A stretch of 64,000 nt of DNA from an uncultured Dehalococcoidia bacterium (GCA_964574685.1 CAZNOI010000005.1:69875-133874); one strand, 5' to 3'; positions 25,678 through 43,539 are shown, counted from the stretch's first letter. Program-made: numbers and translations. The notes: generated from the letters alone by a model not told the origin.

Positions 25678-25705
25678 TGTTCACCCCTTTCCATGGGGCA
25701 CCGAA

Positions 25706-26344
25706 TCACGATACGCCCAACAGCTCTTTCGCTTTGGCTACGGCTCCACCAGCGTCCGAAGCATATGCGTCAGCCTTTATCTGGCGCGCATAGTCATCGG
25801 TGACAGGCGCTCCGCCAATCATCACCTTCACCTTGCTTCTGACGCCCGCGTCGGTCAGGGCCTGTAACGTCTCGGGCATCGCCGGCATGGTTGTTGACAG
25901 GAGAGCGGACATTGCTACAATGTGTGGCTCGATCTCCTGCACCTTCTGCGCGAACTTCTCCGGCGGGACGTCGACGCCCAGGTCGGTAATCGTGAAACCC
26001 GCACCCTCCAGCATCATTGAGACAAGGTTCTTGCCGATGTCGTGCAGGTCGCCCTTGACAGTGCCTATGAGCACCTTGCCCTTGGTGGTGATTCCTCTTT
26101 CCTTGAACAACGGCTCCATGAGCCTCATGCATTCCTGCATTGTCTTGGCGGAACGAAGCATCTGGGGTACGAATATCACCCCCTTCGAGAACCTCTCGCC
26201 CACTTCATCCATAGCTGCGATGAGGCTGGTGTCTATTATCTCCTGTATCGGCGTTCCGTCATCGAGCGCCTTCTGGGTCTCTGCAACAGCGGTCTTGCTG
26301 TCGCCTTTGATCACTGATTCGGTAAGTGTCGCAAGATTGGCCAT
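25706..26344 (-). CDS. corrinoid (cobalamin-binding) protein of a methyltransferase system (MtbC/MttC/MtgC-like)
   Basis: 212 aa. The B12-binding DxHxxG motif is GDLHDIGKN. There is a helical cap domain and a Rossmann B12 domain. Confidence 0.85.
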   Translation of the reverse strand: MANLATLTESVIKGDSKTAVAETQKALDDGTPIQEIIDTSLIAAMDEVGERFSKGVIFVPQMLRSAKTMQECMRLMEPLFKERGITTKGKVLIGTVKGDLHDIGKNLVSMMLEGAGFTITDLGVDVPPEKFAQKVQEIEPHIVAMSALLSTTMPAMPETLQALTDAGVRSKVKVMIGGAPVTDDYARQIKADAYASDAGGAVAKAKELLGVS

Positions 26345-26413
26345 TTCGGACTCCTTCTCTCTTTCCGCGACGTCGAGCTGCTCCGGGTTGGCTCAAGACG
26401 CCCCGGATGCATT

Positions 26414-27211
26414 CTAACCTGACAGTCTGCCCTCCTGGTATGCATCAATGTAGTTTTCACAGAAGTCATCTCTGCCCAGGAGCATATCGATGGACAGCAT
26501 GGTTGACATGAGTTGTCTGTCGTTCGGGTCCAGGATCGCGGCCGATAGACCGTGGCACATCGCCAGGGCAAGGAAGTTGCGATTGACAAGGCGCCTCTCG
26601 GGCAGGCCGAAGGAGATGTTGGAGAGGCCGCAGATGGTATTGACTCCGGGGAAATCATCCATGATCTTCCTTATCGCCCCGAGCACGGCTGCCCCCATGT
26701 TCGTGTCCACCGAGACGGGTTGGACCAGCGGGTCGACGAATATCCTCTCGATGGGGACACCCGCGCCGGTCAGTCGGCTTATGAGTTCCGTTCCCACGGT
26801 CACGCGGTCCTCGACAGTGGTGGGCATCGATGTCTCAGCCATACAGAGCGCCACAACATGGCAAGGTTGCGACGTTACGACAGGAAAGAGAGCCTCGAAC
26901 CGGTCGCGCTCCAGAGATATAGAGTTGATCATTGGGGTGCCCTTGTGCAGTTTCATGGCCTCCGCTATCGCCGCTGGGTTCGGGCTGTCGAGGCAGAGAG
27001 GCAAGTCGATCTCCTTCTGGACAGTCTCGACGAGCCAGCACAGCTTCGCTGTCTCCTGATCGAGGAATGTACCGGCGTTGACGTCTACGAAGTCGGCGCC
27101 CGCTTCGGCCTGCTCGCGGGCCACCTTCACGATGAAGCCTGCGTCCGCCTTGGTTGCAGCCTCGTGGATGCTCTTCCGGCTGGTGTTGATCTTCTCGCCT
27201 ACTACGATCAT
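26414..27211 (-). CDS. methylcorrinoid:tetrahydrofolate methyltransferase (pterin-binding domain; MtrH/AcsE/MtgA-like)
   Basis: 265 aa. It starts MIVVGEKINTS and continues FVDVNAG...CLDSPNP...INSISLE. This is the pterin-binding DHPS-like TIM barrel. Confidence 0.8.
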   Translation of the reverse strand: MIVVGEKINTSRKSIHEAATKADAGFIVKVAREQAEAGADFVDVNAGTFLDQETAKLCWLVETVQKEIDLPLCLDSPNPAAIAEAMKLHKGTPMINSISLERDRFEALFPVVTSQPCHVVALCMAETSMPTTVEDRVTVGTELISRLTGAGVPIERIFVDPLVQPVSVDTNMGAAVLGAIRKIMDDFPGVNTICGLSNISFGLPERRLVNRNFLALAMCHGLSAAILDPNDRQLMSTMLSIDMLLGRDDFCENYIDAYQEGRLSG

Positions 27212-27488: not shown

Positions 27489-29825
27489 ATGACTGAGGGG
27501 ATTGATGCGGGACGCGGTCGCGTCTCAAGAGCGGTAGCCGAGGCCGGCGACGGCCTGCTGCGAGTAAGTGTGCGCGGCGTCGTTCAGGGGGTCGGCTTCA
27601 GGCCGTTCGTCTACCAGTTGGCCGGTGAGCACGGCCTCCGGGGATGGGTGTGCAACACCTCGGGTGACGTCAAGATCGAGGCGGAAGGAGCCCGGGAATC
27701 GCTGCAGCGCTTCCTTGAGGAGCTGACCAACAGGGCGCCGCCGATGGCACGGATAGAGGACGTTGCCTTCACCTGGGACTCGCCCTCGGGCTACACGTCA
27801 TTCGAGATTCGACAGAGTGTGGCCGAATCAGAGAAATACCAGCTCGTATCGCCGGATATCGCCACCTGTGATCAATGTCTGGCAGAGGTCCTGTCCCCGC
27901 AGGACAGGCGCTATCGCTATCCCTTCACTAACTGCACGAACTGCGGCCCTCGCTTCACGATAATCGAGGATATTCCCTACGACCGCCCCAAGACGACGAT
28001 GCGCGTCTTTACCATGTGTCCCGAGTGCCAACGTGAATACGAGGACCCGATGGACCGGCGCTTCCACGCTCAGCCGAACGCTTGTCCCGTGTGCGGACCG
28101 GAACTGAGCCTGCTTGACCCCGCAGGCCGACCGCTTCCCTGCGACGATACGCTGGCTGAGGCGGCGCGACTGCTGAGGAACGGCAACGTGCTGGCTGTCA
28201 AGGGGCTGGGAGGCTTCCTTCTGGCCTGCGACGCGACCAGCGAGACCGCAGTCCACACACTGAGAGAGCGCAAGAGGAGACCGCACAAACCCTTCGCCGT
28301 GATGCTGGCAGACCTGGACGAGGTCAGGCATCATTGCGAAGTATCTGAGCAGGAGGAAGAGCTTCTTCGTTCTCCGGCGAGTCCCATTGTCCTCCTCAGA
28401 TGGAGACATGGCTCGAACATCGCGAAGAGGGTAGCGCCCGGACTGGACTACATGGGAGTGATGATTCCGTACACGCCCATGCACCACCTGCTTCTTCGAG
28501 AGGCGCATTTGCCCCTGGTAATGACCAGCGGCAATCTGAGCGAGGAGCCTATAGCGAAGGATAACGACGAGGCGCTTGTCCGGCTTGGTGGAATCGCCGA
28601 CTGCTTCCTGGTGCACAATCGTGGCATTCACTCACGATATGACGACAGCGTCGCGCTGGTGGAGTTCGGGAAGGCGAGGGTGATTAGGCGGGCGCGAGGC
28701 TATGCTCCGTACCCGATCCATCTCCCTTTCTCGCTGAGACAAGTGCTCGCCTGCGGGCCTGAACTCAAGAACACTTTCTGTCTGATCAGAGACAATCATG
28801 CTTTCGTGAGCCAGCATATCGGGGACATGGAGAACCTCGAAACCATGAACCACTTCGAGAGCACGATTGAACTGTACAGGCAACTGTTCAGGATCGATCC
28901 CGAGATCGTGGCGTACGACATGCACCCCGAGTACCTGTCCACCAAGTATGCGCTGTCGCTGGCAGAAACAAGGAAGGACCTGGAGTTCGTGGCCGTCCAG
29001 CATCATCATGCCCACATCGTGAGCTGCATGGTGGAAAACGAGGTAAAGGAACCGGTAATCGGCGTTTCGTTCGACGGCACGGGTTACGGCACCGATGGCT
29101 GCATCTGGGGCGGCGAGTTCATGGTCGCCGATTTGAATGGTTTCCAGCGGCTGGGCCATTTCGAGTATGTACCCATGCCCGGAGGCGCGGTCTCGATCCA
29201 CCGCCCGTACCGCATGGCGGCAAGCTATGTGCTCACGTTGCTTGGGGGAGAGGCGTTGACCGCCGAGCTTCCGGCGTGCGCGGAAATGCAGGAGGGGGAA
29301 CTCGACATAATCCGCAGACAGCTTGCCAGCGGCATCAACTCACCCCTGACATCCAGCGCGGGCAGGCTATTTGACGCCGTGTCGGCGCTGATAGGTGTTC
29401 GCGGCGTGGCCGGCTACGATGCCCAGGCTGCCATTGAACTGGAGATGGTAGCGGCGGATGGGCAGTGGCCCTGCTACGACTACGTACTGGATGAACAGGA
29501 CGGCGTCTCGATCATGAGGCTGAGTGCTCTGTTCGCCGGGGTGCTCGGTGACCTTCGCGGCGGCGTGCCCCCGTCGGGGATATCGGCGAAGTTCCATGAG
29601 ACGATGGCGAGACTGATAGCGGACGTCTGCGACGGGATCAAGGCGAAGACAGGGATCTCCCGCGTGGCACTTAGCGGCGGTGTGTTCCAGAATCGGCTCT
29701 TGCTCAGGCTGGCAGTGTCTTCTCTGCAGAGCGCCGGTTTCGATGTCATAACGCATGAGAGAGTACCGACCAACGACGGCGGAGTTTCCCTGGGGCAGGC
29801 TGTTATCGCCGGCGTCGCTGGATGA
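27489..29825 (+). CDS. hypF: carbamoyltransferase HypF ([NiFe]-hydrogenase maturation)
   Basis: 778 aa. It has an acylphosphatase domain, two CxxC zinc fingers (NCTNCGPRF...CPECQREY), a YrdC domain and a Kae1-like domain. Confidence 0.9.
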   Translation: MTEGIDAGRGRVSRAVAEAGDGLLRVSVRGVVQGVGFRPFVYQLAGEHGLRGWVCNTSGDVKIEAEGARESLQRFLEELTNRAPPMARIEDVAFTWDSPSGYTSFEIRQSVAESEKYQLVSPDIATCDQCLAEVLSPQDRRYRYPFTNCTNCGPRFTIIEDIPYDRPKTTMRVFTMCPECQREYEDPMDRRFHAQPNACPVCGPELSLLDPAGRPLPCDDTLAEAARLLRNGNVLAVKGLGGFLLACDATSETAVHTLRERKRRPHKPFAVMLADLDEVRHHCEVSEQEEELLRSPASPIVLLRWRHGSNIAKRVAPGLDYMGVMIPYTPMHHLLLREAHLPLVMTSGNLSEEPIAKDNDEALVRLGGIADCFLVHNRGIHSRYDDSVALVEFGKARVIRRARGYAPYPIHLPFSLRQVLACGPELKNTFCLIRDNHAFVSQHIGDMENLETMNHFESTIELYRQLFRIDPEIVAYDMHPEYLSTKYALSLAETRKDLEFVAVQHHHAHIVSCMVENEVKEPVIGVSFDGTGYGTDGCIWGGEFMVADLNGFQRLGHFEYVPMPGGAVSIHRPYRMAASYVLTLLGGEALTAELPACAEMQEGELDIIRRQLASGINSPLTSSAGRLFDAVSALIGVRGVAGYDAQAAIELEMVAADGQWPCYDYVLDEQDGVSIMRLSALFAGVLGDLRGGVPPSGISAKFHETMARLIADVCDGIKAKTGISRVALSGGVFQNRLLLRLAVSSLQSAGFDVITHERVPTNDGGVSLGQAVIAGVAG

Positions 29826-29842: not shown

Positions 29843-30067
29843 ATGTGTCTGGCAATACCCGCACTTGTGAAATCGATAGAAGGCATGGAGGCGGACGTTG
29901 AGATTGGAGGAGTGAGCCGCAGGGCCAGTGTCATGCTCACGCCGGAAGTGAAGGTCGGCGACTACGTCCTGCTACATACCGGGTATGCCATAAGCGTGAT
30001 AGACGAAGAAGAGGCCCGGGAAACCCTCGACCTGCTATCGGAGATGGTGGAGGCCGCGGAAGACTGA
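29843..30067 (+). CDS. hypC: hydrogenase assembly chaperone HypC/HupF
   Basis: 74 aa. N-terminal MCLAIP signature. Confidence 0.85.
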   Translation: MCLAIPALVKSIEGMEADVEIGGVSRRASVMLTPEVKVGDYVLLHTGYAISVIDEEEARETLDLLSEMVEAAED

Positions 30068-30100: not shown

Positions 30101-31195
30101 ATGAAGTTCATCGACGAGTACCGCGACCCCGAACTGGCCAGGAAGCTGGTCGAGCGTATCCGCGAGAAGTCTACCAGGCCTGCACGGCTGATGGAGTTCT
30201 GCGGCGGGCACACGGTCGCCATCGCGAGGCACGGGATTCGCCAGCTCCTGCCTCCCACGGTCGAGATGCTTTCCGGCCCGGGCTGTCCCGTGTGCGTGAC
30301 TGCCAACGCTGACCTGGACAAGGCAATTGCGCTTGCTGGCGCGCCCGATTTGATACTGACGACATTCGGGGACATGATTAAGGTCCCGGCGAGCCGAAGC
30401 AGCCTGCAGCAGGCGAAGGCGGAAGGCGCAGATGTCAGGATTGTCTATTCGACTCAGGATGCCCTAGAGATCGCCGCGGCGAACCCTTCGAAGTCAGTTG
30501 TATTCATCGGGATCGGCTTTGAGACCACAGCCCCGACAGTGGCCGCTTCTGTGGTCCAGGCCGAGCAGAGACGATTGACGAACTACTATGTTCTGTCCCA
30601 GCACAAGATCTGCCCTCCCATAATCAAGGCTGTGCTCGACTCGGGAGAGGTGAAGCTGGACGGCATAGTATGCCCGGGTCACGTGAGTGCGATTATCGGG
30701 TCGGTGCCTTACGAGTTCATTCCCAGGGATTACGGAATAGGCTGCGTGGTGTCCGGGTTCGAACCCCTTGACATCCTGCAATGTGTTGAGATGCTGGTCG
30801 ACCAGGTGGAGTCGGGACAGCCCATAGTAGAAATCGCGTACCAGCGTGGTGTCAGGGAGACAGGCAACAGCACCGCACTGGAGCTACTGTATCGCGTGTT
30901 CGAGCTGTGCGAAGGGAACTGGAGGGGGGTCGGGACGGTGCCCGGCAGCGGGCTGAAGCTGCGACCCGAATACGAAAGCTTTGACGCGGAGAGGGCTTTT
31001 GACATCTCGCCGGGCGAGCCCGTGGAGCCGCAGGGATGCATTTGCGGCGATATCCTTCGAGGTGTAAGCACACCTCTGGAGTGCAGTCTCTTCAGGAGCG
31101 TATGCAACCCCGAGCATCCCGTGGGCCCTTGTATGGTGTCATCCGAGGGTAGCTGCGCTGCGTACTACCGGTACGAGGACGGCTATGGAAGATAG
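30101..31195 (+). CDS. hypD: hydrogenase maturation factor HypD
   Basis: 364 aa. Motifs CGGHT, GPGCPVC and the C-terminal CxxC cluster. Confidence 0.9.
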   Translation: MKFIDEYRDPELARKLVERIREKSTRPARLMEFCGGHTVAIARHGIRQLLPPTVEMLSGPGCPVCVTANADLDKAIALAGAPDLILTTFGDMIKVPASRSSLQQAKAEGADVRIVYSTQDALEIAAANPSKSVVFIGIGFETTAPTVAASVVQAEQRRLTNYYVLSQHKICPPIIKAVLDSGEVKLDGIVCPGHVSAIIGSVPYEFIPRDYGIGCVVSGFEPLDILQCVEMLVDQVESGQPIVEIAYQRGVRETGNSTALELLYRVFELCEGNWRGVGTVPGSGLKLRPEYESFDAERAFDISPGEPVEPQGCICGDILRGVSTPLECSLFRSVCNPEHPVGPCMVSSEGSCAAYYRYEDGYGR

Positions 31196-32189
31196 GGTGC
31201 TGCTTGCGCACGGCAGCGGCGGCAAGCTGAGCCATGATCTCATCTCTGACAACCTTCTCCCGGCTTTCGGCAATGTCTACCTGGACAAGCTCGACGATTC
31301 AGCGGTGTTCGATCTCAGCGGACGCCTAGCAATGACCACCGACAGCTACGTCGTGAACCCGATCTTCTTCCCCGGAGGCGACATCGGGAGGCTGGCGGTC
31401 TGTGGGACTGTCAACGACCTGGCGATGTGCGGCGCAGCACCGAAGTACCTCAGCATATCGCTGATCATCGAGGAAGGCCTGCGCATGGCCGACCTGCGCC
31501 TGGTGGTGGAATCCATCCGCGATGCGGCGAGCGAGGCAGGAGTCATGATCGTTACCGGCGACACCAAGGTGGTCGACAACGGCAGCGCCGACATGCTGTT
31601 CATTAACAGCACCGGGGTAGGGGTTGTGCCGGATGGTCTCAGTATCTCCGGTTCGAGCGCCAAGCCGGGAGATGCGGTCATTCTCAGCGGCCCCATCGGC
31701 GATCACGGAATAGCGGTCATGAGCAAGAGAGAGGGCCTGGAATTCGGCACGCCGGTTGAGAGCGACTGTGCGCCCCTCAACGGGCTCGTGGCCGACATGC
31801 TGTCGACCGGGGCCGAGATCCATTGCATGCGTGACCCCACCAGGGGCGGTCTCGCGAGCACACTCAATGAGTTCGCCGGCAGCTCCGGCGTAGGCATACG
31901 CATTGAAGAGACGGCGATACCTGTGCGAGAGGCAGTGCGCGGCGCCTGCGAGCTGCTGGGCTTTGACCCGCTCTATGTCGCCAACGAAGGGAAGCTCGTC
32001 GCGGTGGTTGCACCAGAGTCTTCGAGCAAGCTGGTCGACATAATGCGCTGGCACAAGTACGGGACCGACGCCGCCGTCATCGGAGAGGTGGTATCGGACC
32101 ACCCCGGCCGTGTTGTAATGAAGACGGCGATGGGAGCTTTGCGCATTGTGGACATGCTGGTGGGGGAGCAGCTTCCCAGAATCTGCTGA
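31185..32189 (+). CDS. hypE: hydrogenase maturation factor HypE
   Basis: 334 aa. PurM-like fold. It overlaps hypD by 11 nt. Confidence 0.9.
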   Translation: MEDRVLLAHGSGGKLSHDLISDNLLPAFGNVYLDKLDDSAVFDLSGRLAMTTDSYVVNPIFFPGGDIGRLAVCGTVNDLAMCGAAPKYLSISLIIEEGLRMADLRLVVESIRDAASEAGVMIVTGDTKVVDNGSADMLFINSTGVGVVPDGLSISGSSAKPGDAVILSGPIGDHGIAVMSKREGLEFGTPVESDCAPLNGLVADMLSTGAEIHCMRDPTRGGLASTLNEFAGSSGVGIRIEETAIPVREAVRGACELLGFDPLYVANEGKLVAVVAPESSSKLVDIMRWHKYGTDAAVIGEVVSDHPGRVVMKTAMGALRIVDMLVGEQLPRIC

Positions 32190-32217
32190 TACGCGGCCCT
32201 CTGCGTCTGAAGGTGTA

Positions 32218-32475
32218 GTGAGCGGACTCGGGCAGTCAACCGGAGAGAGCCGTGCCTACTGTGCCAGGCACCGTCGCTACTATCTGGCGGCTTCAAGTTG
32301 CGAGCTGTGCACGTATGAGGAGAGGGTGAAGACAAGGGGCGAGACTGTACTGTCCAGGCTTCTCCAGTGCCCGGCGTGCGATCAGATGTCGCTCCTGTGG
32401 TATCCGTGCCGCAACATGTGCGAATGCCTCAACCTGGAGTGCAAGCTCCAGCTTGCGGACGAGAAGGACTACTAG
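32218..32475 (+). CDS. small Cys-rich zinc-ribbon protein (85 aa; hypothetical)
   Basis: GTG start at 32218, right after the hypE stop. Translation VSGLGQSTGESRAYCARHRRYYLAASSCELCTYEERVKTRGETVLSRLLQCPACDQMS...CRNMCECLNLECK. It has paired CxxC motifs 19 aa apart plus 4 further Cys. The track ORF 32146..32475 is the same frame with an earlier start inside hypE. Confidence 0.4.
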   Translation: MSGLGQSTGESRAYCARHRRYYLAASSCELCTYEERVKTRGETVLSRLLQCPACDQMSLLWYPCRNMCECLNLECKLQLADEKDY

Positions 32476-32484
32476 TCGGCTGCC

Positions 32485-32829
32485 CTAGTCCTCCAGTTCA
32501 AGACTCTCCAGGTAGACCTCCTCACCGGAGAAGAGCTCCACGTTCGTGCTGCCGCAATTGGGGCACTGCGAATGCTCTGCGTCCGCCGGGAACACCTGGG
32601 CGCAATCCCCGCACCTGTAGACGTCCGAGAAGACATCAATCTCGATTGTGGCACCCTCGGCGATAGTGTCTTTGGCCGAGGCCTGGATGCAGGTAGTCAT
32701 CGCTTCCGGCGTGATATGCGTCTTGCCGCCGAGCCTCACCTTGATCAGGCTGATTCGCTTGGCTTTGTGCTTTTCGGCTTCCTGCAAAGCGTGTTTCACC
32801 ACGCCGTCCGCTATGTGGAATTCGTGCAT
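32485..32829 (-). CDS. hypA: hydrogenase nickel-incorporation protein HypA
   Basis: Start chosen at the internal Met (MHEFHIADGVV...), which matches the HypA N-terminus MHE(L/F)S. The C-terminal zinc site is CGDC...CPNCGS. Confidence 0.8.
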   Translation of the reverse strand: MHEFHIADGVVKHALQEAEKHKAKRISLIKVRLGGKTHITPEAMTTCIQASAKDTIAEGATIEIDVFSDVYRCGDCAQVFPADAEHSQCPNCGSTNVELFSGEEVYLESLELED

Positions 32830-33287
32830 GAGTTCCTCCGTAGCCTTTCCATAATCATGTTCACGCAGATGGGTACAGCCTCCCGGACCTCGGGTGTGCA
32901 TTCTTCACCGAACGTGCCCGCATCCTCAATGGCGATACCGAAGATGACCATCTCGCGGGGGAGGTCCATCTCAAGCCTGCGGCCGAGGTCGAGCGCCGTT
33001 GCGAAGTTGACGTCGTGAACCGAAGATAGGTGCCTGGCCTCGTCGAAGGCCTCGGGTGAGAGTTGAAGCACCTCCCCCGGTCGGTAGCCTGCCATCTCTA
33101 CTGCGTCGACTATGAACGCTCTGTCATAGCCAGAGAGTATGTCCAGCAGCCTGAGACCAGCGAGACTGGTCTCTTCCACAGTGACGTCGCTGTTGTCGAT
33201 TCTGGACTTCAGTTCGGACGCCACCAGCAGTCCCACGCTGTCATCGCTTAGTATGGGATTACCCAGCCCCAGTATAAGTGTTCTCAA
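32811..33287 (-). CDS. hydrogenase maturation endopeptidase (HycI/HyaD/HoxM family)
   Basis: 158 aa. It starts MRTLILGLGNPILSDDSVG and has a conserved Asp/His metal site. It overlaps hypA. Confidence 0.8.
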   Translation of the reverse strand: MRTLILGLGNPILSDDSVGLLVASELKSRIDNSDVTVEETSLAGLRLLDILSGYDRAFIVDAVEMAGYRPGEVLQLSPEAFDEARHLSSVHDVNFATALDLGRRLEMDLPREMVIFGIAIEDAGTFGEECTPEVREAVPICVNMIMERLRRNSCTNST

Positions 33288-33398: not shown

Positions 33399-33427
33399 CT
33401 GGACATACCGTTATGGAAAACGTATAA
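33399..33427 (+). promoter_or_regulatory. sigma70-like promoter candidate (TGGACA-N17-TATAAT) for the hydrogenase operon
   Basis: TGGACA at 33399..33404, a 17-nt spacer, then TATAAT at 33422..33427. It sits in the 390-nt divergent intergenic region and implies a roughly 240-nt leader before 33678. Confidence 0.35.
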
Positions 33428-33677
33428 TCTCAGGAGGGAGCGGCAATTCCGCGCAAGGCGTGCTTCGCAATGCCACCGGGCGGCTCAACCACAGGAGTTC
33501 AATGGGGACGGGGACCCCTGGCAGACAGCAGGACAGGCGCTTCCGTTCAGGTCAGCCTCGACCGATATCCGTTCCTATCCCAATCCAGTTTCGCCCGGAA
33601 CCCGGTTGGGCGGGCTACCTGACAGTATCCCCATTCCGGGCTACCATCCGAAGTAACTAGCGACAGGAGGCCTCAGT

Positions 33678-35465
33678 ATGTGGAAGACAGACAGCACGGG
33701 AAAGGGGCGTGCGGAAGACGCGGTGATGCAGTTCCTTCCGCCATGCCAGATTCGATGTCCCATCAACGAGGATATCCAGCGTACCAACGTGCTCATATCT
33801 CTCCTGCCAGAAGACCCGAACCAGGCCAAAGAAGGTATCATCCAGATAGGTGACTACCTCTACGACAAGAACCCTTTCTTCACGGTCTGCGGCTACATCT
33901 GCGGCCTCTGTGAGAACGACTGCAACTACCGGACGAGGGGCGGCTCTATCAAGAGGCGCCTGCTCAAGCGCTTCCTCTCGGATACCTATACGCCGTATCT
34001 ATCTCAGAAGAAGCCGCTCGAAGTGAAGAAGGACAAGGACAAGGTGGCGGTCATCGGCGGCGGGCCCGGCGGCCTTATGTGCGCATATGAACTGAGCAAG
34101 AGGGGCTACAGGGTAACACTCTTTGACGACGCCGACAAGCTCGGGGGCGCCGTGAGGTACATTCCCGAGTACCGCCTTCCCGAAGAGGTTATGGACGCGG
34201 TAGTTGACAACCTGGTCCGGATAGCTGGCATAGAAGTCAAGCTGAAGACCAAGGTCGGCGAGGGCGGAGTCACGCTTCAGAAGCTGCGGGATGAAGGCTA
34301 CAAGGCGTTCTTCATTGCCACCGGAACTCCCTACCCTCGGCCACTGACCTTCGAAGGCGCCAAGGTCGAGGGCCAGGAGCAGGAGGGCGTCATGTACGGC
34401 CTCAAGCTCCTCTGGGATGCCAACAGGGGAGAAGTGCCGTCCGACCGCTTCAAGGGTAAGGATGTTATCGTAGTCGGTGGCGGCAACGTGGCCTTCGACG
34501 TCGCTCGGACCGCCAGGCGGCTTGGCGGCGACGTCACGCTGGTGGCTCTGGAGGTGCTGGACAAGGCATCGAAGGATGCGATCCCGGCGGATGTCGAGGA
34601 GATCGAAGGAGCGCGCGAAGAGGGAATACGAATCATCCCGTCGCGCGGAGTGCGAGGAATAGCGAAGTCGGACGGCAAGCTGAAGCTCGATTGCCCGCTC
34701 TGTGTCAGCGTGTTCGACGAGAAGGGATTCAATCCACAGTTCGAGTGTGCGGACTGCATTCCGCTGGAGGCCGACAACGTTCTGATTACCATTGGCCAGA
34801 TGGGGGACCGAGCGTTCCTTCAGAACGAGGGCCTCTTCAACGAAGCGGGCAGACTGCAGGTCGATCCGGTCGATCTGCGGGGGCGGGTTCCCGATGTGTT
34901 CATAGGCGGCGATGTGCGGCGAATCGGTTTCCTCGCTGACGCCATGCAGGAGGGCGTTGAGGCGGCTGAGTCCATCGATCGCTATCTGAGCGGGGTTGAC
35001 CTGAAACGGGACAGGGTACGCGAGTACAGCCCGTACGATGCGCCTTACCGCAGCAGGTATGAGGAAGAGCCGAAGCACAAGTGGATGCCCGCTGACAGCC
35101 GGATGAACTTCAATATGTTCGAGCAGGGATTCACCCTGCCGGAGGCGATCGAGGAGGCGAGGAGGTGCATTACCTGCGGGCCGTGCGTGTCCTGCAAAGC
35201 ATGCGTCTCAGTCGGCATCCAGGACGAGCTGACCCCGGCGCAGGTGGATGAGGACCTGTGTTGCGGCTGCAAGATGTGCTTTTATGCCTGCAACTACGAT
35301 GCCGCGGGACTCAAGGAGGTCGACGGCAGGCTCGTCTCCTACACGGACGAGCTGAAGTGCAAGTCGTGCGGCATGTGTGTGGCGGCCTGTCCGTCGGGTG
35401 CGAGGTCGCTCTCCGGTGACAGGACACCCGCCCGAATCCAGGAGGTCTACAGTGCTCTCCGGTAG
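33678..35465 (+). CDS. GltD/NfnB/SudA-like FAD- and NAD(P)H-binding oxidoreductase with a C-terminal 2x[4Fe-4S] ferredoxin domain (hydrogenase-associated)
   Basis: 595 aa. The N-terminal Cys cluster is CQIRCPINEDI...CGYICGLCENDCNY (the GltD-type helical ferredoxin). FAD motif VAVIGGGPGGLMCAYEL. NAD(P) motif VIVVGGGNVAFDVART. C-terminal cluster motifs are CITCGPCVSCKAC and CKSCGMCVAACP. Confidence 0.75.
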   Translation: MWKTDSTGKGRAEDAVMQFLPPCQIRCPINEDIQRTNVLISLLPEDPNQAKEGIIQIGDYLYDKNPFFTVCGYICGLCENDCNYRTRGGSIKRRLLKRFLSDTYTPYLSQKKPLEVKKDKDKVAVIGGGPGGLMCAYELSKRGYRVTLFDDADKLGGAVRYIPEYRLPEEVMDAVVDNLVRIAGIEVKLKTKVGEGGVTLQKLRDEGYKAFFIATGTPYPRPLTFEGAKVEGQEQEGVMYGLKLLWDANRGEVPSDRFKGKDVIVVGGGNVAFDVARTARRLGGDVTLVALEVLDKASKDAIPADVEEIEGAREEGIRIIPSRGVRGIAKSDGKLKLDCPLCVSVFDEKGFNPQFECADCIPLEADNVLITIGQMGDRAFLQNEGLFNEAGRLQVDPVDLRGRVPDVFIGGDVRRIGFLADAMQEGVEAAESIDRYLSGVDLKRDRVREYSPYDAPYRSRYEEEPKHKWMPADSRMNFNMFEQGFTLPEAIEEARRCITCGPCVSCKACVSVGIQDELTPAQVDEDLCCGCKMCFYACNYDAAGLKEVDGRLVSYTDELKCKSCGMCVAACPSGARSLSGDRTPARIQEVYSALR

Positions 35466-35499
35466 GCTGGGGAAGCTACTCTCTAGGAGGTCGACGAAA

Positions 35500-35916
35500 A
35501 TGTCCGATGGCGAACCGAAAGTCGTTTGTTTCTCCTGCAATTTCAGTTGGGGCTACCTGGCCGACAGAGATGCCCTTGCGTCGCAGGTCAAGAACTGGGT
35601 CCCGGTCGTGTGCACAGGCAAGATCGATATTACGCACATACTTGATGCCTTTCGGGCGGGCGCCGACGGGGTGCTGATCCTTGGGTGCCCCGAAGGTGAC
35701 TGCCACTTCCAGGACGGCAACATCGAGTGCAAGAAGAGGGTCTTCCTGCTAGGGAAGCTGCTGGAGGACTACGGGATCGAGAAGGACAGGCTTCGGATCG
35801 AGCTTGCAAGCGACCCCGATGGCAGCAAGCTCCCGCAGATGGTCAAGCAGATGAGCGAGAGCATTGCCCGGCTGGGCCCCGTCAAGAAAGTCGAGGCGCC
35901 AAGCAAGGTGGCATAG
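35500..35916 (+). CDS. mvhD: MvhD-like hydrogenase delta subunit ([2Fe-2S])
   Basis: Start at the internal ATG 35500, preceded by AGGAGG. Translation MSDGEPKVVCFSCNFSWGY...VVCTGKIDITHILDAFRAGADGVLILGCPEGDCHFQDG is the MvhD signature. Confidence 0.8.
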   Translation: MSDGEPKVVCFSCNFSWGYLADRDALASQVKNWVPVVCTGKIDITHILDAFRAGADGVLILGCPEGDCHFQDGNIECKKRVFLLGKLLEDYGIEKDRLRIELASDPDGSKLPQMVKQMSESIARLGPVKKVEAPSKVA

Positions 35917-35959
35917 ACGCCTGCAGGGAGAATCGACTGAATGGAGAGAGGAGTTCATT

Positions 35960-36925
35960 ATGGCTGACAAACCGAAGGTTGCGATTTGCTGGCTCGGGTC
36001 CTGCGGTGGCTGCGATGAAGCAGTGGTCGACATAAACGAAGCGGTCCTCACTGTGGCCGATGCCACGGATATCATTCTGTGGCCGGTGGCGCTGGACTAC
36101 AAGTACCACCACATAGAGGCCATGCAGGACGGTGAGATCACACTGAGTATCATCAATGGTCATATCAGGAACTCGGAGCAGGAAGAGGTGGCTAGGCTGC
36201 TCAGGAAGAAGTCCAAGCTCGTCCTGGCGTTCGGCGCATGTGCCTGCTTCGGAGGCACGCCGGGCATGGCCAACTTCAGAACCAAGGACGACATTTTCAA
36301 CTGGGTGTACCGGGATGCGCCCACGGTGGTCAACCCGAATGACAACAGGCCGCAGCCGAAGTCTACTGTCAACGGCAAGGAGCTAACCCTGCCTGAGTTC
36401 TACGAGCAGGTCTACGCTCTGAACCAGAGCATCGACGTGGACTACTATCTCCCCGGTTGTCCGCCTCCTCCGGACCTGATTGTAAACGCGGTGATGGCGG
36501 TGCTCGAGGGACGCCTCCCCGAAAAGGGCTCGACGCTGGCGCCGGCCCGGGCGCTTTGTGATACCTGCCCGCGCAACAAGACCAAGCCGGACAAGATATC
36601 GGTCAAGGAGTTCAAGCGGATACACGAGGTGGAGGCCGACCCCGATACATGCTTCCTGGCTCAGGGTATCGTGTGCCTGGGACCGGCTATTCGCTCCGGT
36701 TGCGGCGAGGCTTGCATGAATATCAACATCCCGTGCAGAGGCTGCTTCGGCCCTGTCGAGGGAGTGGGCGACGCTGGAGCCAGGCTGCTGTGCTCGCTGG
36801 CGTCGATTGTCGAGGCGGAGAGCGACAGTGAGCTGGAACAGGTGATGAGCACACTGGCCGATCCGGCCGGATACGCATACAGGTTCTCGGCGCCGATCTC
36901 GACACTGGTCAAGAAGCGGGTCTAG
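35960..36925 (+). CDS. mvhG: [NiFe]-hydrogenase small subunit (MvhG-like)
   Basis: Start at the internal ATG 35960. MADKPKVAICWLGSCGGCDEAVVD is the proximal-cluster motif. The C-terminus has additional Cys clusters. Confidence 0.85.
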   Translation: MADKPKVAICWLGSCGGCDEAVVDINEAVLTVADATDIILWPVALDYKYHHIEAMQDGEITLSIINGHIRNSEQEEVARLLRKKSKLVLAFGACACFGGTPGMANFRTKDDIFNWVYRDAPTVVNPNDNRPQPKSTVNGKELTLPEFYEQVYALNQSIDVDYYLPGCPPPPDLIVNAVMAVLEGRLPEKGSTLAPARALCDTCPRNKTKPDKISVKEFKRIHEVEADPDTCFLAQGIVCLGPAIRSGCGEACMNINIPCRGCFGPVEGVGDAGARLLCSLASIVEAESDSELEQVMSTLADPAGYAYRFSAPISTLVKKRV

Positions 36926-36945
36926 GAAGTCAAGGAGGAGCGACA

Positions 36946-38409
36946 ATGGGCAAGAGAATCACCATCAATCCGATAACGAGGCTCGAGGGCCACGGCAAGA
37001 TCGAGGTCTTTCTCGACGACACCGGCAACGTGGAGGATGCGTACTGGCAGGTCGTCGAGCTGAGGGGTTTTGAGAGGTTCTGCGTCGGCAGACCGGCGGA
37101 GGAAATGCCACGGATAACGCCGAACATATGCGGTGTCTGTCCGACGCCGCATAACATGGCGTCGACCAAGGCGCTTGATGACCTCTACAGCGTCGAGCCG
37201 ACACCCGCGGCGAAGCTGGTGCGCAAGCTCCACTACGATGCCTTCTACATCGAGGACCACTACATCCACTTCTTCTTCCTCTCGGCTCCTGACTTCGTTT
37301 TGGGCCCGGACGCCGACCCTGCCGAGCGAAACATCCTCGGCGTCATCGGAAAGGTAGGGCTGGATATCGGCAAGAAGGTAATCGATATCCGGAAGAGGAA
37401 CAGGGACGTCATCAAGCTGATCGGGAGCAAGCCCCCGCATCCCGAAGGTGGTCTTCCCGGCGGCGTCCCGAGGGGCGTCACCGAGGAAGAGCGGAAATGG
37501 ATCAAGCAACTGGCCGATGACAACGTCGAGTTCGCCCAGTTCGCCCTCAAGCTGTTCAAGGACACCGTCGTTGCGAACAAGCAGTACCTCGACCTCGTAC
37601 TCAGCGATGCCTACAACCTCAAGACCTACTACATGGGGCTGGTCGACGACAGCAAGAAGTGGGCGATCTACGAGGGCAAGATCAGGGTCATCGATCCCCA
37701 GGGCAAGGAGTATGCCCTCTTCGACCCGCGCGAATACACCGACTACATCGGCGAGTGGGTCGAGCCCTGGACCTACATCCGGCTGACCCATCTCAGGAAG
37801 CTTGGCTGGCAGGGGCTGGTCGAGGGCGACGGCACGTCGATATACCGCGTGGCGCCACTAGCCAGGCTGAACGTCTGTGAGTCAATGCCCACGCCGCTGG
37901 CCCAGAAGGCGCATGACGAGATGTACGAGGCGCTGGGCGGGAAGCCCGCGCACAATACCCTCGCCTTCCACTGGGCGAGGCTGATAGAGTGTCTGGCCTG
38001 CGCGGAGGAGATGCAGCAGATAGCGGCTGACCCCATGCTGACGAGCAAGGACATCCGCAACATGGATTTGAAGCTGAAGAACGTCGGCATCGGATGTGTG
38101 GAAGCGGCTAGGGGCACGCTGATACACCACTACGAGACCGATGACAGGGGCCTCATCACAAAGGCTAACCTGATCGTCGCCACCCAGCATAATGCGGCGC
38201 CCATCTGCATGTCGGTGAAGAAGGCTGCGATGGGGTTCGTCAAGGGCCCCGAGGTCAAGGAAGGCCTCCTCAACATGGTGGAGATGGCTTTCCGGGCCTA
38301 TGACCCGTGTCTCGCCTGCGCGACGCACTCCCTGCCCGGCAAGATGCCCCTTGAGATCAATATCAGGGACAAGAGCGGGCAGGTCATAACGAGCGTCGAG
38401 CGACACTAG
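36946..38409 (+). CDS. mvhA: [NiFe]-hydrogenase large subunit (MvhA-like, group 3)
   Basis: 487 aa. N-terminal RLEGHG...NICGVCPTPH. C-terminal DPCLACATH, followed by a cleavable extension. Confidence 0.9.
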   Translation: MGKRITINPITRLEGHGKIEVFLDDTGNVEDAYWQVVELRGFERFCVGRPAEEMPRITPNICGVCPTPHNMASTKALDDLYSVEPTPAAKLVRKLHYDAFYIEDHYIHFFFLSAPDFVLGPDADPAERNILGVIGKVGLDIGKKVIDIRKRNRDVIKLIGSKPPHPEGGLPGGVPRGVTEEERKWIKQLADDNVEFAQFALKLFKDTVVANKQYLDLVLSDAYNLKTYYMGLVDDSKKWAIYEGKIRVIDPQGKEYALFDPREYTDYIGEWVEPWTYIRLTHLRKLGWQGLVEGDGTSIYRVAPLARLNVCESMPTPLAQKAHDEMYEALGGKPAHNTLAFHWARLIECLACAEEMQQIAADPMLTSKDIRNMDLKLKNVGIGCVEAARGTLIHHYETDDRGLITKANLIVATQHNAAPICMSVKKAAMGFVKGPEVKEGLLNMVEMAFRAYDPCLACATHSLPGKMPLEINIRDKSGQVITSVERH

Positions 38410-39317: not shown

Positions 39318-40148
39318 TCACCCACGTTGACTGAGCAGGCTGTTCATGGCGGTGACGAGTTTCTCGCTGTCCTCCTGGCTTATCATCAGGTTGCTCTCCA
39401 ATCGTTGCACGCTCTCCCTCAGGTCCGGTGCATTGGCCAGGAACTGCTCTATGCGCTCGTTCTGCGTTCTGGCCTGTGCATCGAGGTCGGAGAGGTCGAT
39501 GTCGAGTTCGAATCTGCTGTTCAGGAACTCCAGGGCCTTCTTCCAGGCGCTCGGGTCCTCACTGCCCACCATGTAGAAAGGTACCGGCACCCAGAGCCCC
39601 GCTGCGGCCAGGCCGCGCGCCTTGGCCAGCCAGAGCAGGAATGAGTTGAGGGTGGGCCTCTGGCCGTCCGGCGTCTCGTAGTCGATATCCCGTGTGATGC
39701 CGTATTGCTCCAGCATCTCCTTGGCCTCGTCGGAAGCCGCTACAGCGAGAAGCTGCCTGGGTGTGGTGTGCGCGGTCATGGAGACCATGCCGCCCATCGT
39801 ATAGAGCTCCCGGGCGCGAAATTGCCCCGTTAACGCGTCGAGGACTGCGTTCAGGAACTCGTACCAGTTGGAGGCGGGGGCGTCGCTCGTGAAGACCACC
39901 ACTCCCATGTCCGCCGCATAGTAGAACTTGCTTTCGGGGAACTCGGCCACGTCGTCTTCAACGCTGACGCCGCCCAGAGGAAAGAAATCGACCAGCTCGA
40001 TCTCGCCGGCCTCCCTGGCGTCGAGCTTGCCGATAAGCTGGTCGGCGATGCGGCGGCCCATCTTACCGGCGTCGTCAGCCCAGCATGCCACCGCGCATCG
40101 CGCCCCCCCGGGCGCTTCACCTTTCATACGAAGATGCCCGGTGTTCAT
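39318..40148 (-). CDS. PAC2-family protein (proteasome-assembly-chaperone-2-like, PbaA/PbaB-like), paralog 1
   Basis: 276 aa. A paralog of the next gene. It has a glycine-rich N-terminal region and the FP...FYYAA block. The start is uncertain. Confidence 0.55.
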   Translation of the reverse strand: MNTGHLRMKGEAPGGARCAVACWADDAGKMGRRIADQLIGKLDAREAGEIELVDFFPLGGVSVEDDVAEFPESKFYYAADMGVVVFTSDAPASNWYEFLNAVLDALTGQFRARELYTMGGMVSMTAHTTPRQLLAVAASDEAKEMLEQYGITRDIDYETPDGQRPTLNSFLLWLAKARGLAAAGLWVPVPFYMVGSEDPSAWKKALEFLNSRFELDIDLSDLDAQARTQNERIEQFLANAPDLRESVQRLESNLMISQEDSEKLVTAMNSLLSQRG

Positions 40149-40151
40149 CGA

Positions 40152-41069
40152 CTAGTCTTCCCTGTCCTCTCTCCTGAACATCTTGTCGATATCGTCCATG
40201 ATCCGCTTCTTGTCTTCCTCGGTAATCGGCCCCGGCTCGGGAGTCTCAGCCTCGCGGAGCTTCTCGATCTGCTCCTTTATCTGGTCCGGGAACACGTTGT
40301 ACAGCTTCTCGATCTCCATCTCGCTGGCCTCGACGATAGTCGATATGCCGGACATGTCAATGTCCAGCGACAGTATCCGGGACAGCGCCTCGACGACCGA
40401 TCTGGACGCCTTGGGGTATGGGAAAGGCAGGCCCTGCAGGTATATCGGTATCTCGCCCATAAGGCATACGGCATCCATGGATCGCTTCCTTGCCACGCCG
40501 AGGAGGAGGCCGTTAAGTCCGGTGATGCTTCCCTGACCGTCCCTGCCTTCGATATCGGACATGAGGATGGTGTTCTCCCAAGCCTTCACCTCCTCCACCA
40601 GCGATTCGCTGTTCGGCACGGCCCATATCTTGGGCGTCGCCGTGTGATGGATGGCGGCTACCGCCGCTCCGGAGGTGTAAATCCTGCGGCATCCGAAGCG
40701 TTCGGCCACATCCAGCACCAGATTGGCCATTATGTACGCCTTCTCCCCGGCGGCATAGTGCCTGCCGCCGGCGCTGGGCTGCTCCTCGCCCAGGAACATA
40801 ATCAGGTCCCTGTTGTTGAGCTTCTTGTAGTAGAACCTGCTGGAAGGGAAGTCGAGGTGATCGAGCACGCCCTGCCTGATGTAGACCTTGCTGGGATAGA
40901 AGAAGCCCTTTGGATCGATCTCGCCCAGCTCCTCGGCGTCGAGGGCCGACCTGAGCGTGTCGACCGCGATAGTGCCGATGCTGCCTATGCCGGGCCAACT
41001 CGCGATGAGCACCGGCTCCCGGAGTTCCGGCGATGCGTACAGCGTTACCCCTGTCAGTTCTTCCTGCAT
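40152..41069 (-). CDS. PAC2-family protein, paralog 2
   Basis: 305 aa. VLIASWPGIGSIGTIAVDTL...FFYPSKVY...SSRFYY matches the archaeal PbaB-type N-terminus L.G.PGIG.VG. It ends in an acidic tail. Confidence 0.65.
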   Translation of the reverse strand: MQEELTGVTLYASPELREPVLIASWPGIGSIGTIAVDTLRSALDAEELGEIDPKGFFYPSKVYIRQGVLDHLDFPSSRFYYKKLNNRDLIMFLGEEQPSAGGRHYAAGEKAYIMANLVLDVAERFGCRRIYTSGAAVAAIHHTATPKIWAVPNSESLVEEVKAWENTILMSDIEGRDGQGSITGLNGLLLGVARKRSMDAVCLMGEIPIYLQGLPFPYPKASRSVVEALSRILSLDIDMSGISTIVEASEMEIEKLYNVFPDQIKEQIEKLREAETPEPGPITEEDKKRIMDDIDKMFRREDRED

Positions 41070-41191: not shown

Positions 41192-41890
41192 CTAAGGTAG
41201 CTCCTTGAACCGGTATCCCAGACCACGTTCGCTGAGGATGTACTCGGGGTTCCTGGGGTCCTTCTCGATCTTCTGCCTCAGGTAGGTGACGTACAGTCGC
41301 ACGTAGTGGTCCTCGTCCCTGTACTCGGGCCCCCACACCTTGGATAGCAGGGTACCGTGCGTGAGCAGCTTCCCGGCGTTGGACACAAGATGCTTCAGCA
41401 GCCTGTACTCGGTCGGCCTCAGCTTGAACTCCCGGCCTCCGGCCATCACTTTGCGCTGCTCGAAGTCAATGTGCAGGTAGTCATCGACGTCGATAACCGA
41501 CCGCTCCGCCGGCACCGACACTCTTGCCCGCCTAAGCACGGCCTTGATTCTGGAGACCAGCTCCCTCGGGCTGAACGGCTTGGTCAGGTAGTCGTCGGCG
41601 CCGAGGTCAAGTCCCTTGACGCGGTCCTCCTCCTCGCTCTTCACGCTAAGGAAGATGACCGGCACCGGCGATGACTGACGTATCTTCTCCAGCGTCTCGT
41701 AGCCGTCCATTTCGGGCATCATGATGTCCAGCACGACCAAGTCGGGTGATTCCTTCACCACGGTCTCCACCGCTTCCTGCCCGCTCGAAGCTTCGAGGAC
41801 GCGGAAGCCCTCCAGCTCCAGATTCATGGCGATGAAGCGCACCATTCTCGGCTCGTCATCGACCACCAGTACTGTTGTGTCGGGAGCCAT
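41192..41890 (-). CDS. OmpR/PhoB-family response regulator
   Basis: 232 aa. Receiver domain (VLVVDDEP...D at LVVLDIMMP) plus a winged-helix domain. Confidence 0.85.
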   Translation of the reverse strand: MAPDTTVLVVDDEPRMVRFIAMNLELEGFRVLEASSGQEAVETVVKESPDLVVLDIMMPEMDGYETLEKIRQSSPVPVIFLSVKSEEEDRVKGLDLGADDYLTKPFSPRELVSRIKAVLRRARVSVPAERSVIDVDDYLHIDFEQRKVMAGGREFKLRPTEYRLLKHLVSNAGKLLTHGTLLSKVWGPEYRDEDHYVRLYVTYLRQKIEKDPRNPEYILSERGLGYRFKELP

Positions 41891-41898
41891 TTCTCCGC

Positions 41899-43539
41899 CT
41901 ATTCCTCTGTCTCTTCGTCGGCTGCAGGCTTCCCGATCGGCAGCGTGAAGGTGAACTGGGAGCCCTTGCCCAGCTCGCTCTCAACCCAGATATCGCCGCC
42001 GTGGGCCTCGATAATGTACTTGCATATGAACAGCCCCAGCCCGATTCCCCTGACAGCCTGGACGGTGTCGCTGTCCACGCGATGGAACCGCTCGAATATG
42101 CTGTCGAGTTCCCTCCTTGGTATCCCGATGCCGGTGTCCGCTACGCCTACGGCGACGGCGCCGTCCCGCGGTGCAGCGATCACGGTTATGACGCCTCCAT
42201 CCGGCGAGTACTTGACGGCGTTGTCGATGAGATTCCCCAGCACCTCCTCCATGAGGTCGGCATCCGCGTTGACGACGGGCGTGTTCCTCTCCACCTGTAC
42301 TGCCAGTTCGTGGCGGTCGCTCAAGCCCTGGAACCGCCGTGCCACCTTGTTCAGCAGGCTCCTGACGTTCAGCGGCTCCCTGTTCGGCGACAGAGTACCG
42401 GACTCGATTCGTGAAGCGAGCAGGAGCCTCTTGACGATCCTGCTTAGCCGGTCGCACTCGTCCTCTATGACCTGCAGGCCCTGCCGCATGGTGGCCTCGT
42501 CCCACTTCCCGTCGCTCCTGGACAGGGTGCTGGTGTAGCCCTTCATGATCGAGATGGGCGTTTGAAGCTGATGACCGAGCATTGACAGGAAGGTGGACCT
42601 CAGGTTCTCGACCTCGCGCTGCCTCGTGATATCGCGGACGTTCACCACCGCGTTGAGAGGCCGTCCGTCAGGGGCCCGCATGATGGAGTAGACCATCTCA
42701 ACATCCACCTGCTGGCCGTCCTTCGTTGCGATAGTGCCCTGAAGATGGACTGTCGGCTGAGGCCTGGCGGGTATCACGCGCATCGGGCAACGCTCGCCGC
42801 ACACCTCGTTCCCGCTCCAATCCCGGAAGTCGAGCACCCTTGAGCAGACTCTGCCTGTCACCTCTTCCCTGGAGTAGCCGGCGAGCTGCTCCATAGCGGA
42901 GTTGAAGCCCGTGATCCGCCGTTCCGAGTCGATGGCCATAATGCCGTCGGCGCTGCCCTCCAGTATGGATTCCAGCCTCTCCTTCTCGGCGGTCATTATG
43001 CCGGCAAGGCGTGCGTTGTGGACCGCTATGGCGGCCTGCTCGGCGAAGACATTCAGAATGGTCTGGTCACCCCTTGCGAAATCGCCGGCGTGAGGAGGGC
43101 GAAGGATGCAGATCAGCCCGACGGAGGTGCTGCCTACGCGGAGGGGGACGGCAATGATGGCATCCTGCGTATCTCCGGACTCCGAGGTCGGCAGAGGTGC
43201 CCCGGCTTGGAGACGGGACAGCGAGTCAAAGCTCTCGCTGCTGGCCGCGAGGTCGGGAATGGCCTCCTGCAGCAGGGGCCTGATGCGTTCCAGGGATTCC
43301 TCGCTGAGGTCGTAAGTCGCAGTTATCTCGAAGCTGCGCTTCAGGTTCTCCCAGGTCGCGACTATACCTGTGGTACCGCTTGTCGCACGTGCCGCGTTCC
43401 TCAGTATGAGGTCCAGGGCTACGCGCAGGTCGTAGCGCTCGAAGGATGGCTCGCCTTTACTCAACTCGCTTCGCTGGCTCCGTGTCGTCGAACCGATTTC
43501 TAATGCAATTCTAGCATTTCTCAAGTGTTCTTCTAACAC
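41899..43539 (-). CDS. sensor histidine kinase (GAF + PAS + HisKA + HATPase_c)
   Basis: H-box [16 protein letters not shown]1 and G2 boxes (DNAVKYS, GIGLGL). The 5' end is uncertain. The track start is a GTG inside an AT-rich stretch only 57 nt from groES. Confidence 0.8.

Follow-up and report, generated by a model that had tools for sequence, protein, structure and literature searches.

A GltD/StnC-type flavoprotein as the predicted NAD+-linked partner of a group 3c-like [NiFe] hydrogenase in an uncultured Dehalococcoidia bacterium

A 64-kb stretch of DNA from an uncultured Dehalococcoidia bacterium (GCA_964574685.1, CAZNOI010000005.1:69875-133874; the whole stretch is called the window here) carries a four-gene operon for a soluble [NiFe] hydrogenase at positions 33678-38409. 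The four genes lie on the same strand with short gaps between them, and the third-position guanine-cytosine content of their open reading frames (ORFs), 0.76-0.84, is high and of the coding type. Three of the genes encode an Mvh-type hydrogenase, and the first encodes a flavoprotein of the GltD/NfnB/StnC type instead of the heterodisulfide reductase subunit HdrA. The complex probably acts as a linear, reversible, non-bifurcating oxidoreductase between H2 and nicotinamide adenine dinucleotide (NAD+), built on a 3c-type hydrogenase in which the flavoprotein replaces HdrABC. This operon family is widespread, conserved and uncharacterised. No paper describing a GltD-like-MvhDGA hydrogenase was found in a literature search that did not reach the key syntroph and sulfate-reducer genome papers, and a Chloroflexi-wide hydrogenase survey, which reports 3c enzymes with Hdr/Etf and a partner-less "3e", does not mention the layout. 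Among described systems, HdrL, type III HdrA and the GltD modules of StnC and NfnA come nearest to it.

The operon consists of the following genes:
33678-35465, + strand: flavoprotein with flavin adenine dinucleotide (FAD) and Fe-S clusters, GltD/NfnB/StnC type, 595 residues
35500-35916, + strand: MvhD/VhuD-type [2Fe-2S] adaptor, 138 residues; start (MSDGEPK...) from the public gene call
35960-36925, + strand: MvhG-type [NiFe]-hydrogenase small subunit, long form, 321 residues
36946-38409, + strand: MvhA-type [NiFe]-hydrogenase large subunit, 487 residues

Hydrogenase subunits and the missing Hdr partners

A first-pass annotation of the window had described mvhD-mvhG-mvhA as Mvh-type, and family profiles, alignments with chains of solved structures and a neighbor-joining tree all agree with it; the start of MvhD had to be moved, to 35500. 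MvhD matches Pfam FlpD (3e-31) and aligns over its full length with MvhD of 5odc (E 1.6e-25), its Cys13, 38, 63 and 68 falling opposite Cys of archaeal MvhD. The small subunit is of the VhuG type in NCBIfam (204 bits). Its residues 6-314 align with the three-cluster MvhG of 5odc (E 1.7e-63), and the short small subunits HydS and HoxY cover only the first ~190 residues. For the large subunit, VhuA is the best NCBIfam family with 409 bits, a score below the equivalog cutoff of 800. Among large subunits in the PDB, the highest score belongs to HydL of the Acetomicrobium NiFe-HydABCSL (392 bits), followed by MvhA/VhuA (375-377 bits) and HoxH (326 bits), with the F420-reducing hydrogenase (~113 bits) far behind.

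The large subunit had been said to end in the motif DPCLACATH (L2) with a C-terminal extension, which is correct; the extension is 26 residues long and is expected to be removed by a maturation protease. The other motif, given as RICGVC, is in fact NICGVCPTPH: in the L1 motif PRITPN-ICGVC-PTPH, an Asn precedes ICG and replaces the canonical Arg of R-x-C-G-x-C. In the tree, which includes few references, the bacterial large subunits branch next to those of archaeal Mvh/Vhu as their sister group (85% bootstrap), HydL and HoxH falling outside, and they form two well-supported clades. Clade I holds the window MvhA and most of the flavoprotein-linked enzymes, and all of its large subunits have the L1 Asn (PRITPN-ICGVC-PTPHN; window 37060-37110, MvhA residues ~40-56). 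Clade II has Arg at this position (DITPR-ICGVC-PEAHH in the Syntrophorhabdus type) and holds the flavoprotein-linked enzymes of Syntrophorhabdus aromaticivorans and of locus L087 together with an Hdr-linked copy from the metagenomic contig L089. Because clade II mixes Hdr-linked and flavoprotein-linked large subunits, partner types must have been exchanged between hydrogenase lineages.

In comparison with the methanogen MvhADG/VhuADG-HdrABC complexes (group 3c), the window MvhA has 40-43% identity to archaeal MvhA/VhuA, and the long three-cluster small subunit, the MvhD Cys and the HdrA-like C-terminal ferredoxin domain are shared. The differences are the change of Arg to Asn in L1 of the window clade and the nature of the partner, which is here a GltD/NfnB-type flavoprotein that has a site for pyridine nucleotide. 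NAD+ is predicted as the acceptor, whereas theirs are heterodisulfide and ferredoxin. No HdrB, HdrC or HdrA flavin core was found in the window by tblastn with bacterial HdrA/B/C queries, whose sole match was the C-terminal ferredoxin domain of the flavoprotein, and none of the window ORFs of at least 90 residues has HdrB-like CCG motifs.

Relatives of the operon were collected by a scan of a one-genome-per-species collection with two peptide patterns, the stretches being confirmed by tblastn. At least 156 were found, and the neighbourhood counts given here were taken on the 80 best of them (57-87% identity). No Hdr genes recur in the flanks of these 80 loci, so that the absence of hdrB and hdrC, noted at first for the window, extends to its relatives, and the HdrABC link characteristic of group 3c is seen in neither. 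The genes mvhD-mvhG-mvhA follow the flavoprotein gene in all 76 loci that are not cut by a contig end. The hosts are Dehalococcoidia, S. aromaticivorans UI, other Syntrophorhabdales, Syntrophales, Desulfobacterales, Acidobacteriota and Bipolaricaulota; the operon is thus present in at least four phyla, with unrelated flanks. The nearest loci (87% and 79% identity) belong to metagenome-assembled genomes of Dehalococcoidia, and metagenomic clusters number in the thousands in the protein database. A protein search with a Dehalococcoidaceae orthologue as query gave no named match from Dehalococcoides mccartyi among its best 120, locus-tag searches for this species were also empty, and its proteome supplements list only VhuG (cbdbA596) and VhuA (cbdbA597).

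Other hydrogenase groups were considered and rejected. Group 3b is excluded by the sulfhydrogenase profiles (alpha 93-134 bits and delta 53-68 bits, against cutoffs of 460-880), and also by the partner, as the flavoprotein is not AsrA/B-like. Group 3d (Hox) and the Bfu-type HydABCSL are excluded by the long Mvh-type small subunit and by the lack of NuoE and NuoF, for which tblastn of the window gave nothing except a ferredoxin-motif match. These enzymes combine NuoE/F/G-type flavin mononucleotide diaphorase modules with short one-cluster small subunits, neither of which occurs here. Still, HoxEFUYH would be a functional analogue from different parts, since its overall reaction of H2 with NAD+ is the one predicted here, and HydL of NiFe-HydABCSL (7t2r), the top solved large subunit with 42% identity, shares the C-terminal extension. 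Among large subunits, sulfhydrogenase chains reach 83 bits against 377-393 for Mvh/HydL, and HoxH lies outside the Mvh clade. As had also been proposed, the layout fits no canonical 3b, 3c or 3d partner set. The alpha, gamma and delta subunits are nevertheless 3c-like by all these comparisons, which points to a partner swap rather than to a new hydrogenase lineage.

Anatomy of the flavoprotein

By sequence and by fold search, the first gene product is of the GltD/NfnB type and does not group with HdrA, in line with the first-pass annotation. Its Pfam matches are Pyr_redox_2 (2e-30), Fer4_20 and a C-terminal 4Fe-4S dicluster; the NCBIfam family PRK12771 scores 327 bits, below its family cutoff of 516. 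Pfam, NCBIfam, PDB sequence search and Foldseek agree that residues ~20-440 belong to the GltD/NfnB/DPD family. Among solved structures, its closest relatives are NfnA from the Thermococcus NfnABC complex, the large subunit of Pyrococcus furiosus NfnI (NfnI-L) and StnC, whose alignment covers residues 20-572. An AlphaFold model (mean predicted local distance difference test score, pLDDT, 62.6), used for fold search only, gave NfnA, StnC, NfnI-L, DPD and GltD as top Foldseek matches, and HdrA is not among the 50 matches listed. Matches to HdrA chains and models are confined to the ferredoxin domain at the C-terminal end (residues ~497-592), and HdrA was rejected as the identity of the first gene. 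The following parts can be distinguished:

Residues 21-104: Fe-S domain, with Cys23, 27, 71, 75, 78, 82 and Lys97
Residues 122-160: Rossmann fold for FAD, with GGGPGG
Residues 262-300: Rossmann fold for NAD(P)H, with GGGNVA ... VALE292
Residues 476-509: displaced opening part of the Fer4_20 domain, with Cys497, 500, 503, 506, 509
Residues 521-579: 2x[4Fe-4S] ferredoxin domain, with Cys528/531/534/538 and Cys561/564/567/571

The Fer4_20 domain is split. Profile positions 30-108 are found at residues 21-104, and positions 3-36, with the EAxRCxxC piece usually seen at the start of the domain, at residues 476-509. In StnC, the EAxRCxxC-like piece likewise comes after the flavin domains, aligned opposite residues 471-510. 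Alignment with NfnB, StnC and DPD suggests Cys27, Cys75, Cys78 and Lys97 as ligands of a proximal cluster, and Cys23, Cys82, Cys497 and Cys500 as those of a distal cluster. Lys97, within RRLLKRF, is present in 80 of 84 sequences, the other four not matching the search pattern. It aligns with Lys170 of StnC, which ligates the proximal cluster of a GltD module shown to be non-bifurcating (PMC10482914). In the same enzyme, this module is the entry point of NADPH (the phosphorylated nucleotide) into a linear Fe-S wire (PMC10482914).

StnC (StnABC, 8oh5) and NfnA (NfnABC, 9n5u/9bov) are the best matches by sequence and by fold, and they share with the flavoprotein both the split Fer4_20 domain, with EAxRCxxC after the flavin domains, and the Lys at the position of the proximal-cluster ligand. 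Their GltD modules are non-bifurcating nucleotide entries on a linear Fe-S wire. In contrast to the module described here, which stands alone, has an HdrA-like ferredoxin domain at its end and is paired with MvhD and a hydrogenase, they form part of larger chains with NuoG/FdhF-like domains and supply a bifurcating core of the HydBC type; their nucleotide is NADPH, and they carry Tyr-Arg-Arg where the present protein has Leu-Glu. With NfnB/NfnI-L, GltD and DPD, the likeness lies in the Fe-S domain and the FAD and NAD(P)H Rossmann domains. DPD also joins a GltD-type module to a C-terminal 2x[4Fe-4S] domain. Unlike in NfnB and DPD, a Lys stands at the position of the cluster ligand Glu (NfnB) or Gln (DPD), and two N-terminal Cys have been relocated; unlike NfnB, the protein has no NfnA partner among its recurrent neighbours and no Arg-Arg pair. 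The alignment with HdrA, NfnB and GltD thus upholds the family proposed at first but not an NfnB-type Glu at the proximal cluster. An identity as bifurcating NfnB (NfnAB) was rejected, with Lys97 standing for Glu and Leu-Glu for Arg-Arg.

The nucleotide site differs from those of the NADPH-using relatives. The Tyr-Arg-Arg that follows strand beta-2 in NfnB, StnC and NfnA is replaced by Ala/Cys-Leu-Glu in all 80 loci. Glu292 is found 20 residues past the GGGNVA motif, where NAD-specific folds classically have their acidic residue. As this sequence stands in for the NADPH-type Tyr-Arg-Arg, NADH rather than NADPH is predicted as the cofactor. Among the 150 best representatives at 50% identity, 81 are of the acidic type and 36 of the Arg-Arg type. 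The two variants are read as a putative specificity switch, since sister hydrogenase operons (P0123, L085) have true Tyr-Arg-Arg versions. The first-pass proposal that the enzyme couples H2 to NAD(P)H is therefore kept as regards the exchange of partner and narrowed as regards the nucleotide, NADH being likelier than NADPH.

The C-terminal end of the protein would link it to the hydrogenase. A match to HdrA in its C-terminal ferredoxin domain (9sfi_A 570-635, E 6e-16) covers residues 514-579, and tblastn gave 42% identity to a bacterial HdrA C-terminus. In HdrA, the N- and C-terminal regions mediate hydrogenase binding together with a helix of VhuD (PMC13518236). Distant relatives of ~700-740 residues combine the GltD-like module, the ferredoxin domain and MvhD in one polypeptide, and the fused flavoprotein-MvhD gene is followed by mvhG-mvhA-hycI in three independent contexts. 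These natural fusions (Rosetta-stone evidence) indicate that the flavoprotein and MvhD work together and that the ferredoxin domain is next to MvhD. One of them lies on contig L089 (7001-12220, +), divergent from a canonical hdrC-hdrB-hdrA-mvhD-mvhG-mvhA operon on the same contig (16-6432, -). The two large subunits belong to different clades. As both operons are carried side by side, they represent two separate enzymes. Some other relatives end in a response-regulator receiver domain (P0121, 724 residues; P0360, 824 residues).

Electron path and alternative mechanisms

In the mechanism that we favour, MvhA, MvhG, MvhD and the flavoprotein would form one soluble complex. Electrons leaving the NiFe site would travel along the three [4Fe-4S] clusters of MvhG to the [2Fe-2S] cluster of MvhD, and from there to the two [4Fe-4S] clusters of the C-terminal ferredoxin domain, which would be the docking site of MvhD. 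They would continue to the distal and then the proximal [4Fe-4S] cluster of the split GltD-type domain and reach FAD, which would exchange hydride with the pyridine nucleotide, predicted to be NAD+/NADH. This linear chain is proposed because of the StnC precedent, the Lys97 signature and the homology of the C-terminal end to the hydrogenase-binding region of HdrA. Its likely physiological role is the re-oxidation of NADH to H2 at low H2 pressure, as in fermentative or syntrophic anaerobes, or alternatively an H2-driven supply of NADH.

Several points weigh against this linear H2:NAD+ enzyme. The H2:NAD+ activity is, for any member of the family, a prediction from sequence, and the preference for NADH follows from a single sequence rule; a 2'-phosphate could yet be bound by the conserved Lys296 and the Lys/Arg at 299. 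In its fold the protein is also close to NfnB, a flavoprotein that bifurcates. Cys71, 503, 506 and 509 are invariant and fall outside the proposed ligand sets; an additional cluster or a branch point could be built from them. At residues 447-583 the AlphaFold model is of low quality (pLDDT ~30), and contacts of the ferredoxin domain with the GltD-type Fe-S domain and MvhD cannot be read from it. Finally, hdrBC or ferredoxin partners might be encoded elsewhere in the genome.

The alternative that survives best, although unlikely, is a flavin-based bifurcating or confurcating hydrogenase coupling H2, ferredoxin and NAD(P)H, as the first-pass annotation had suggested. Electrons would branch at the flavin, one way through the GltD-type clusters to an external ferredoxin, the other through the ferredoxin domain at the C-terminus with MvhD to the hydrogenase; H2 and reduced ferredoxin could for example be used together to form NAD(P)H at very low H2. 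The nearness of the flavoprotein, in fold and sequence, to the bifurcating NfnB/NfnI large subunit is consistent with such an enzyme, as are the two sets of Fe-S clusters and the four spare invariant Cys that flank the flavin domains. MvhD-containing systems typically bifurcate (PMC5861303), and the hosts live close to thermodynamic limits. However, Lys97 together with the split Fer4_20 domain resembles the non-bifurcating StnC and NfnA(Bfu) and not NfnB with its Glu, which makes bifurcation the less likely reading. An NfnA-like second flavoprotein is absent: NfnA is not among the recurrent neighbours in the flanks of the 80 loci, although no search was aimed at it, and a ferredoxin gene is not conserved there either. 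Judging from the mechanisms in PMC9304861, a single FAD that passes hydride would not double as a one-electron branch point. Moreover, the formation of H2 and reduced ferredoxin from NADH is endergonic by our estimate, so that only the confurcating direction would be allowed. A specific form of this idea, a new type with a single NfnB-like FAD between two Fe-S branches and no Hdr, Nfn-S or Bfu parts, is slightly more doubtful still; if true, it would be a fifth bifurcation architecture, widespread in Dehalococcoidia and syntrophic Desulfobacterota.

With a lower probability again, the flavoprotein and the Mvh subunits might form an input arm only, delivering electrons to an acceptor encoded elsewhere, such as an HdrBC-like protein, DsrC or another disulfide or sulfur compound. 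The reaction with NAD(P)H would then be a side reaction or absent, and the sulfide dehydrogenase activity of SudA would be a parallel. The best-known role of MvhD is that of adaptor to modules of the Hdr type, and acceptor genes could sit in the genome outside the 64-kb window. GltD-like domains are also found fused into HdrA near mvhD or mvhADG (HdrL, PMC2702500; type III HdrA, PMC12054007; P0128). In Bathyarchaeota, type III HdrA has a GltD/NfnB domain inserted in HdrA beside MvhADG, and coupling to NADH has been proposed (PMC2702500, PMC12054007, PMC9012536). HdrL of Desulfobacterium autotrophicum and type III HdrA resemble the present system in this association of a GltD-like nucleotide module with MvhD, but they keep the full bifurcating core of HdrA, and usually HdrBC, whereas the flavoprotein has no HdrA flavin domain. 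Against an input arm, the 80 loci are accompanied by no Hdr-like or other redox gene except for lineage-specific ones, the two Rossmann motifs do not vary among the orthologues, and the complete hdrCBA-mvhDGA set beside the flavoprotein-mvhGA operon of L089 speaks for distinct enzymes and not for shared parts.

Least probable is an NADPH-specific version of the linear enzyme, providing H2-driven NADPH for biosynthesis as in group 3b: GGGNVA is of the GxGxxA type often tied to NADP (PMC12054007), all solved relatives use NADPH and the vicinity of the site retains Lys296 and Lys/Arg299, yet the Leu-Glu of all orthologues, next to genuine Tyr-Arg-Arg sites in sister operons, looks like a change of specificity.

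Genomic surroundings and significance

Upstream of the operon, the window holds genes for hydrogenase maturation. The protease and hypA are immediately upstream and divergent from the operon, and the remaining hyp genes, assigned from the Pfam families of the identical public contig and from ORF translation, are further upstream. Together with the signals preceding the flavoprotein gene, these features are:

27489-29825, + strand: hypF
29843-30067, + strand: hypC
30101-31195, + strand: hypD
31185-32189, + strand: hypE
32485-32829, - strand: hypA nickel metallochaperone (Pfam HypA 4e-27; public gene call)
32811-33287, - strand: maturation endopeptidase, HycI/HybD family (Pfam HycI 6e-14; TIGR00072 106 bits)
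33400-33428, + strand: sigma-70-like promoter candidate TGGACA-17-TATAAT from a consensus scan, ~250 nucleotides upstream of the flavoprotein ATG
33665-33670, + strand: ribosome-binding site AGGAGG upstream of the flavoprotein

The promoter candidate agrees with the consensus at 11 of 12 positions, but it is weak evidence, as three such sites were found against 1.7 expected. Rfam gave no match for the leader of ~250 nucleotides (33429-33677), whose fold does not exceed that of shuffled sequence in stability, and a riboswitch or structured leader was rejected on these grounds. No hypB was seen in this hyp cluster. Between hypE and hypA lies a Cys-rich ORF of 109 residues (32146-32475, +), which is a publicly called gene without a Pfam match.

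In the flanks of the 80 loci, only three kinds of neighbour recur: the protease in 23 loci, a histidine kinase accompanied by a response regulator in 27-28 and a NuoE/NuoF/Fdh-like cluster in 15-20. The kinase and regulator sit just downstream of mvhA (e.g., L003 14975-16788), which, along with the receiver-domain relatives of the flavoprotein, hints at regulation dedicated to redox or H2. The window, too, has a kinase paired with a regulator (41192-43539), on the strand opposite to the operon. The cluster of NuoE-like, NuoF-like and molybdopterin (Fdh- or HydA-like) genes resembles Bfu-type enzymes; it is divergent and often upstream of the operon in Dehalococcoidia loci (L003 1-2686 (-), L031, L034) and is absent from the window.

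Just downstream of mvhA, at 39318-41069 (-), two adjoining genes of the PAC2 family (proteasome-assembly-chaperone-like) and a PP2C phosphatase gene are found. At 55563-58019 (-) and 53030-55532 (-) lie a gene for a glycyl-radical enzyme (PFL-like and Gly_radical domains) and, next to it, two ORFs of ~420 residues. Directly upstream of hypF, the region 17650-27211 encodes a corrinoid methyltransferase system composed of two MttB-family methyltransferases, a B12-binding protein, a RACo-type reductive activase, a DUF1638 protein and a pterin-binding protein, and beyond it a 2-oxoacid:ferredoxin oxidoreductase. These genes suggest demethylation of methylated amines to tetrahydrofolate as a source of reducing equivalents.

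Bacterial "group 3c" hydrogenases are routinely annotated as Hdr-linked and bifurcating, and many of them may have been misread. A large share would have no Hdr partner and would probably exchange electrons directly with NADH, which affects models of H2 metabolism in Dehalococcoidia, Syntrophorhabdus, Syntrophales and other anaerobes of sediments and digesters. In terms of modular evolution, MvhD would be a general adaptor and the HdrA-like ferredoxin domain a portable docking element. As the operon is carried by a cultured organism, S. aromaticivorans UI, the prediction is directly testable. A [NiFe] hydrogenase linked to NADH without bifurcation would evolve H2 only at very low H2 pressure, which is the regime of syntrophic life.

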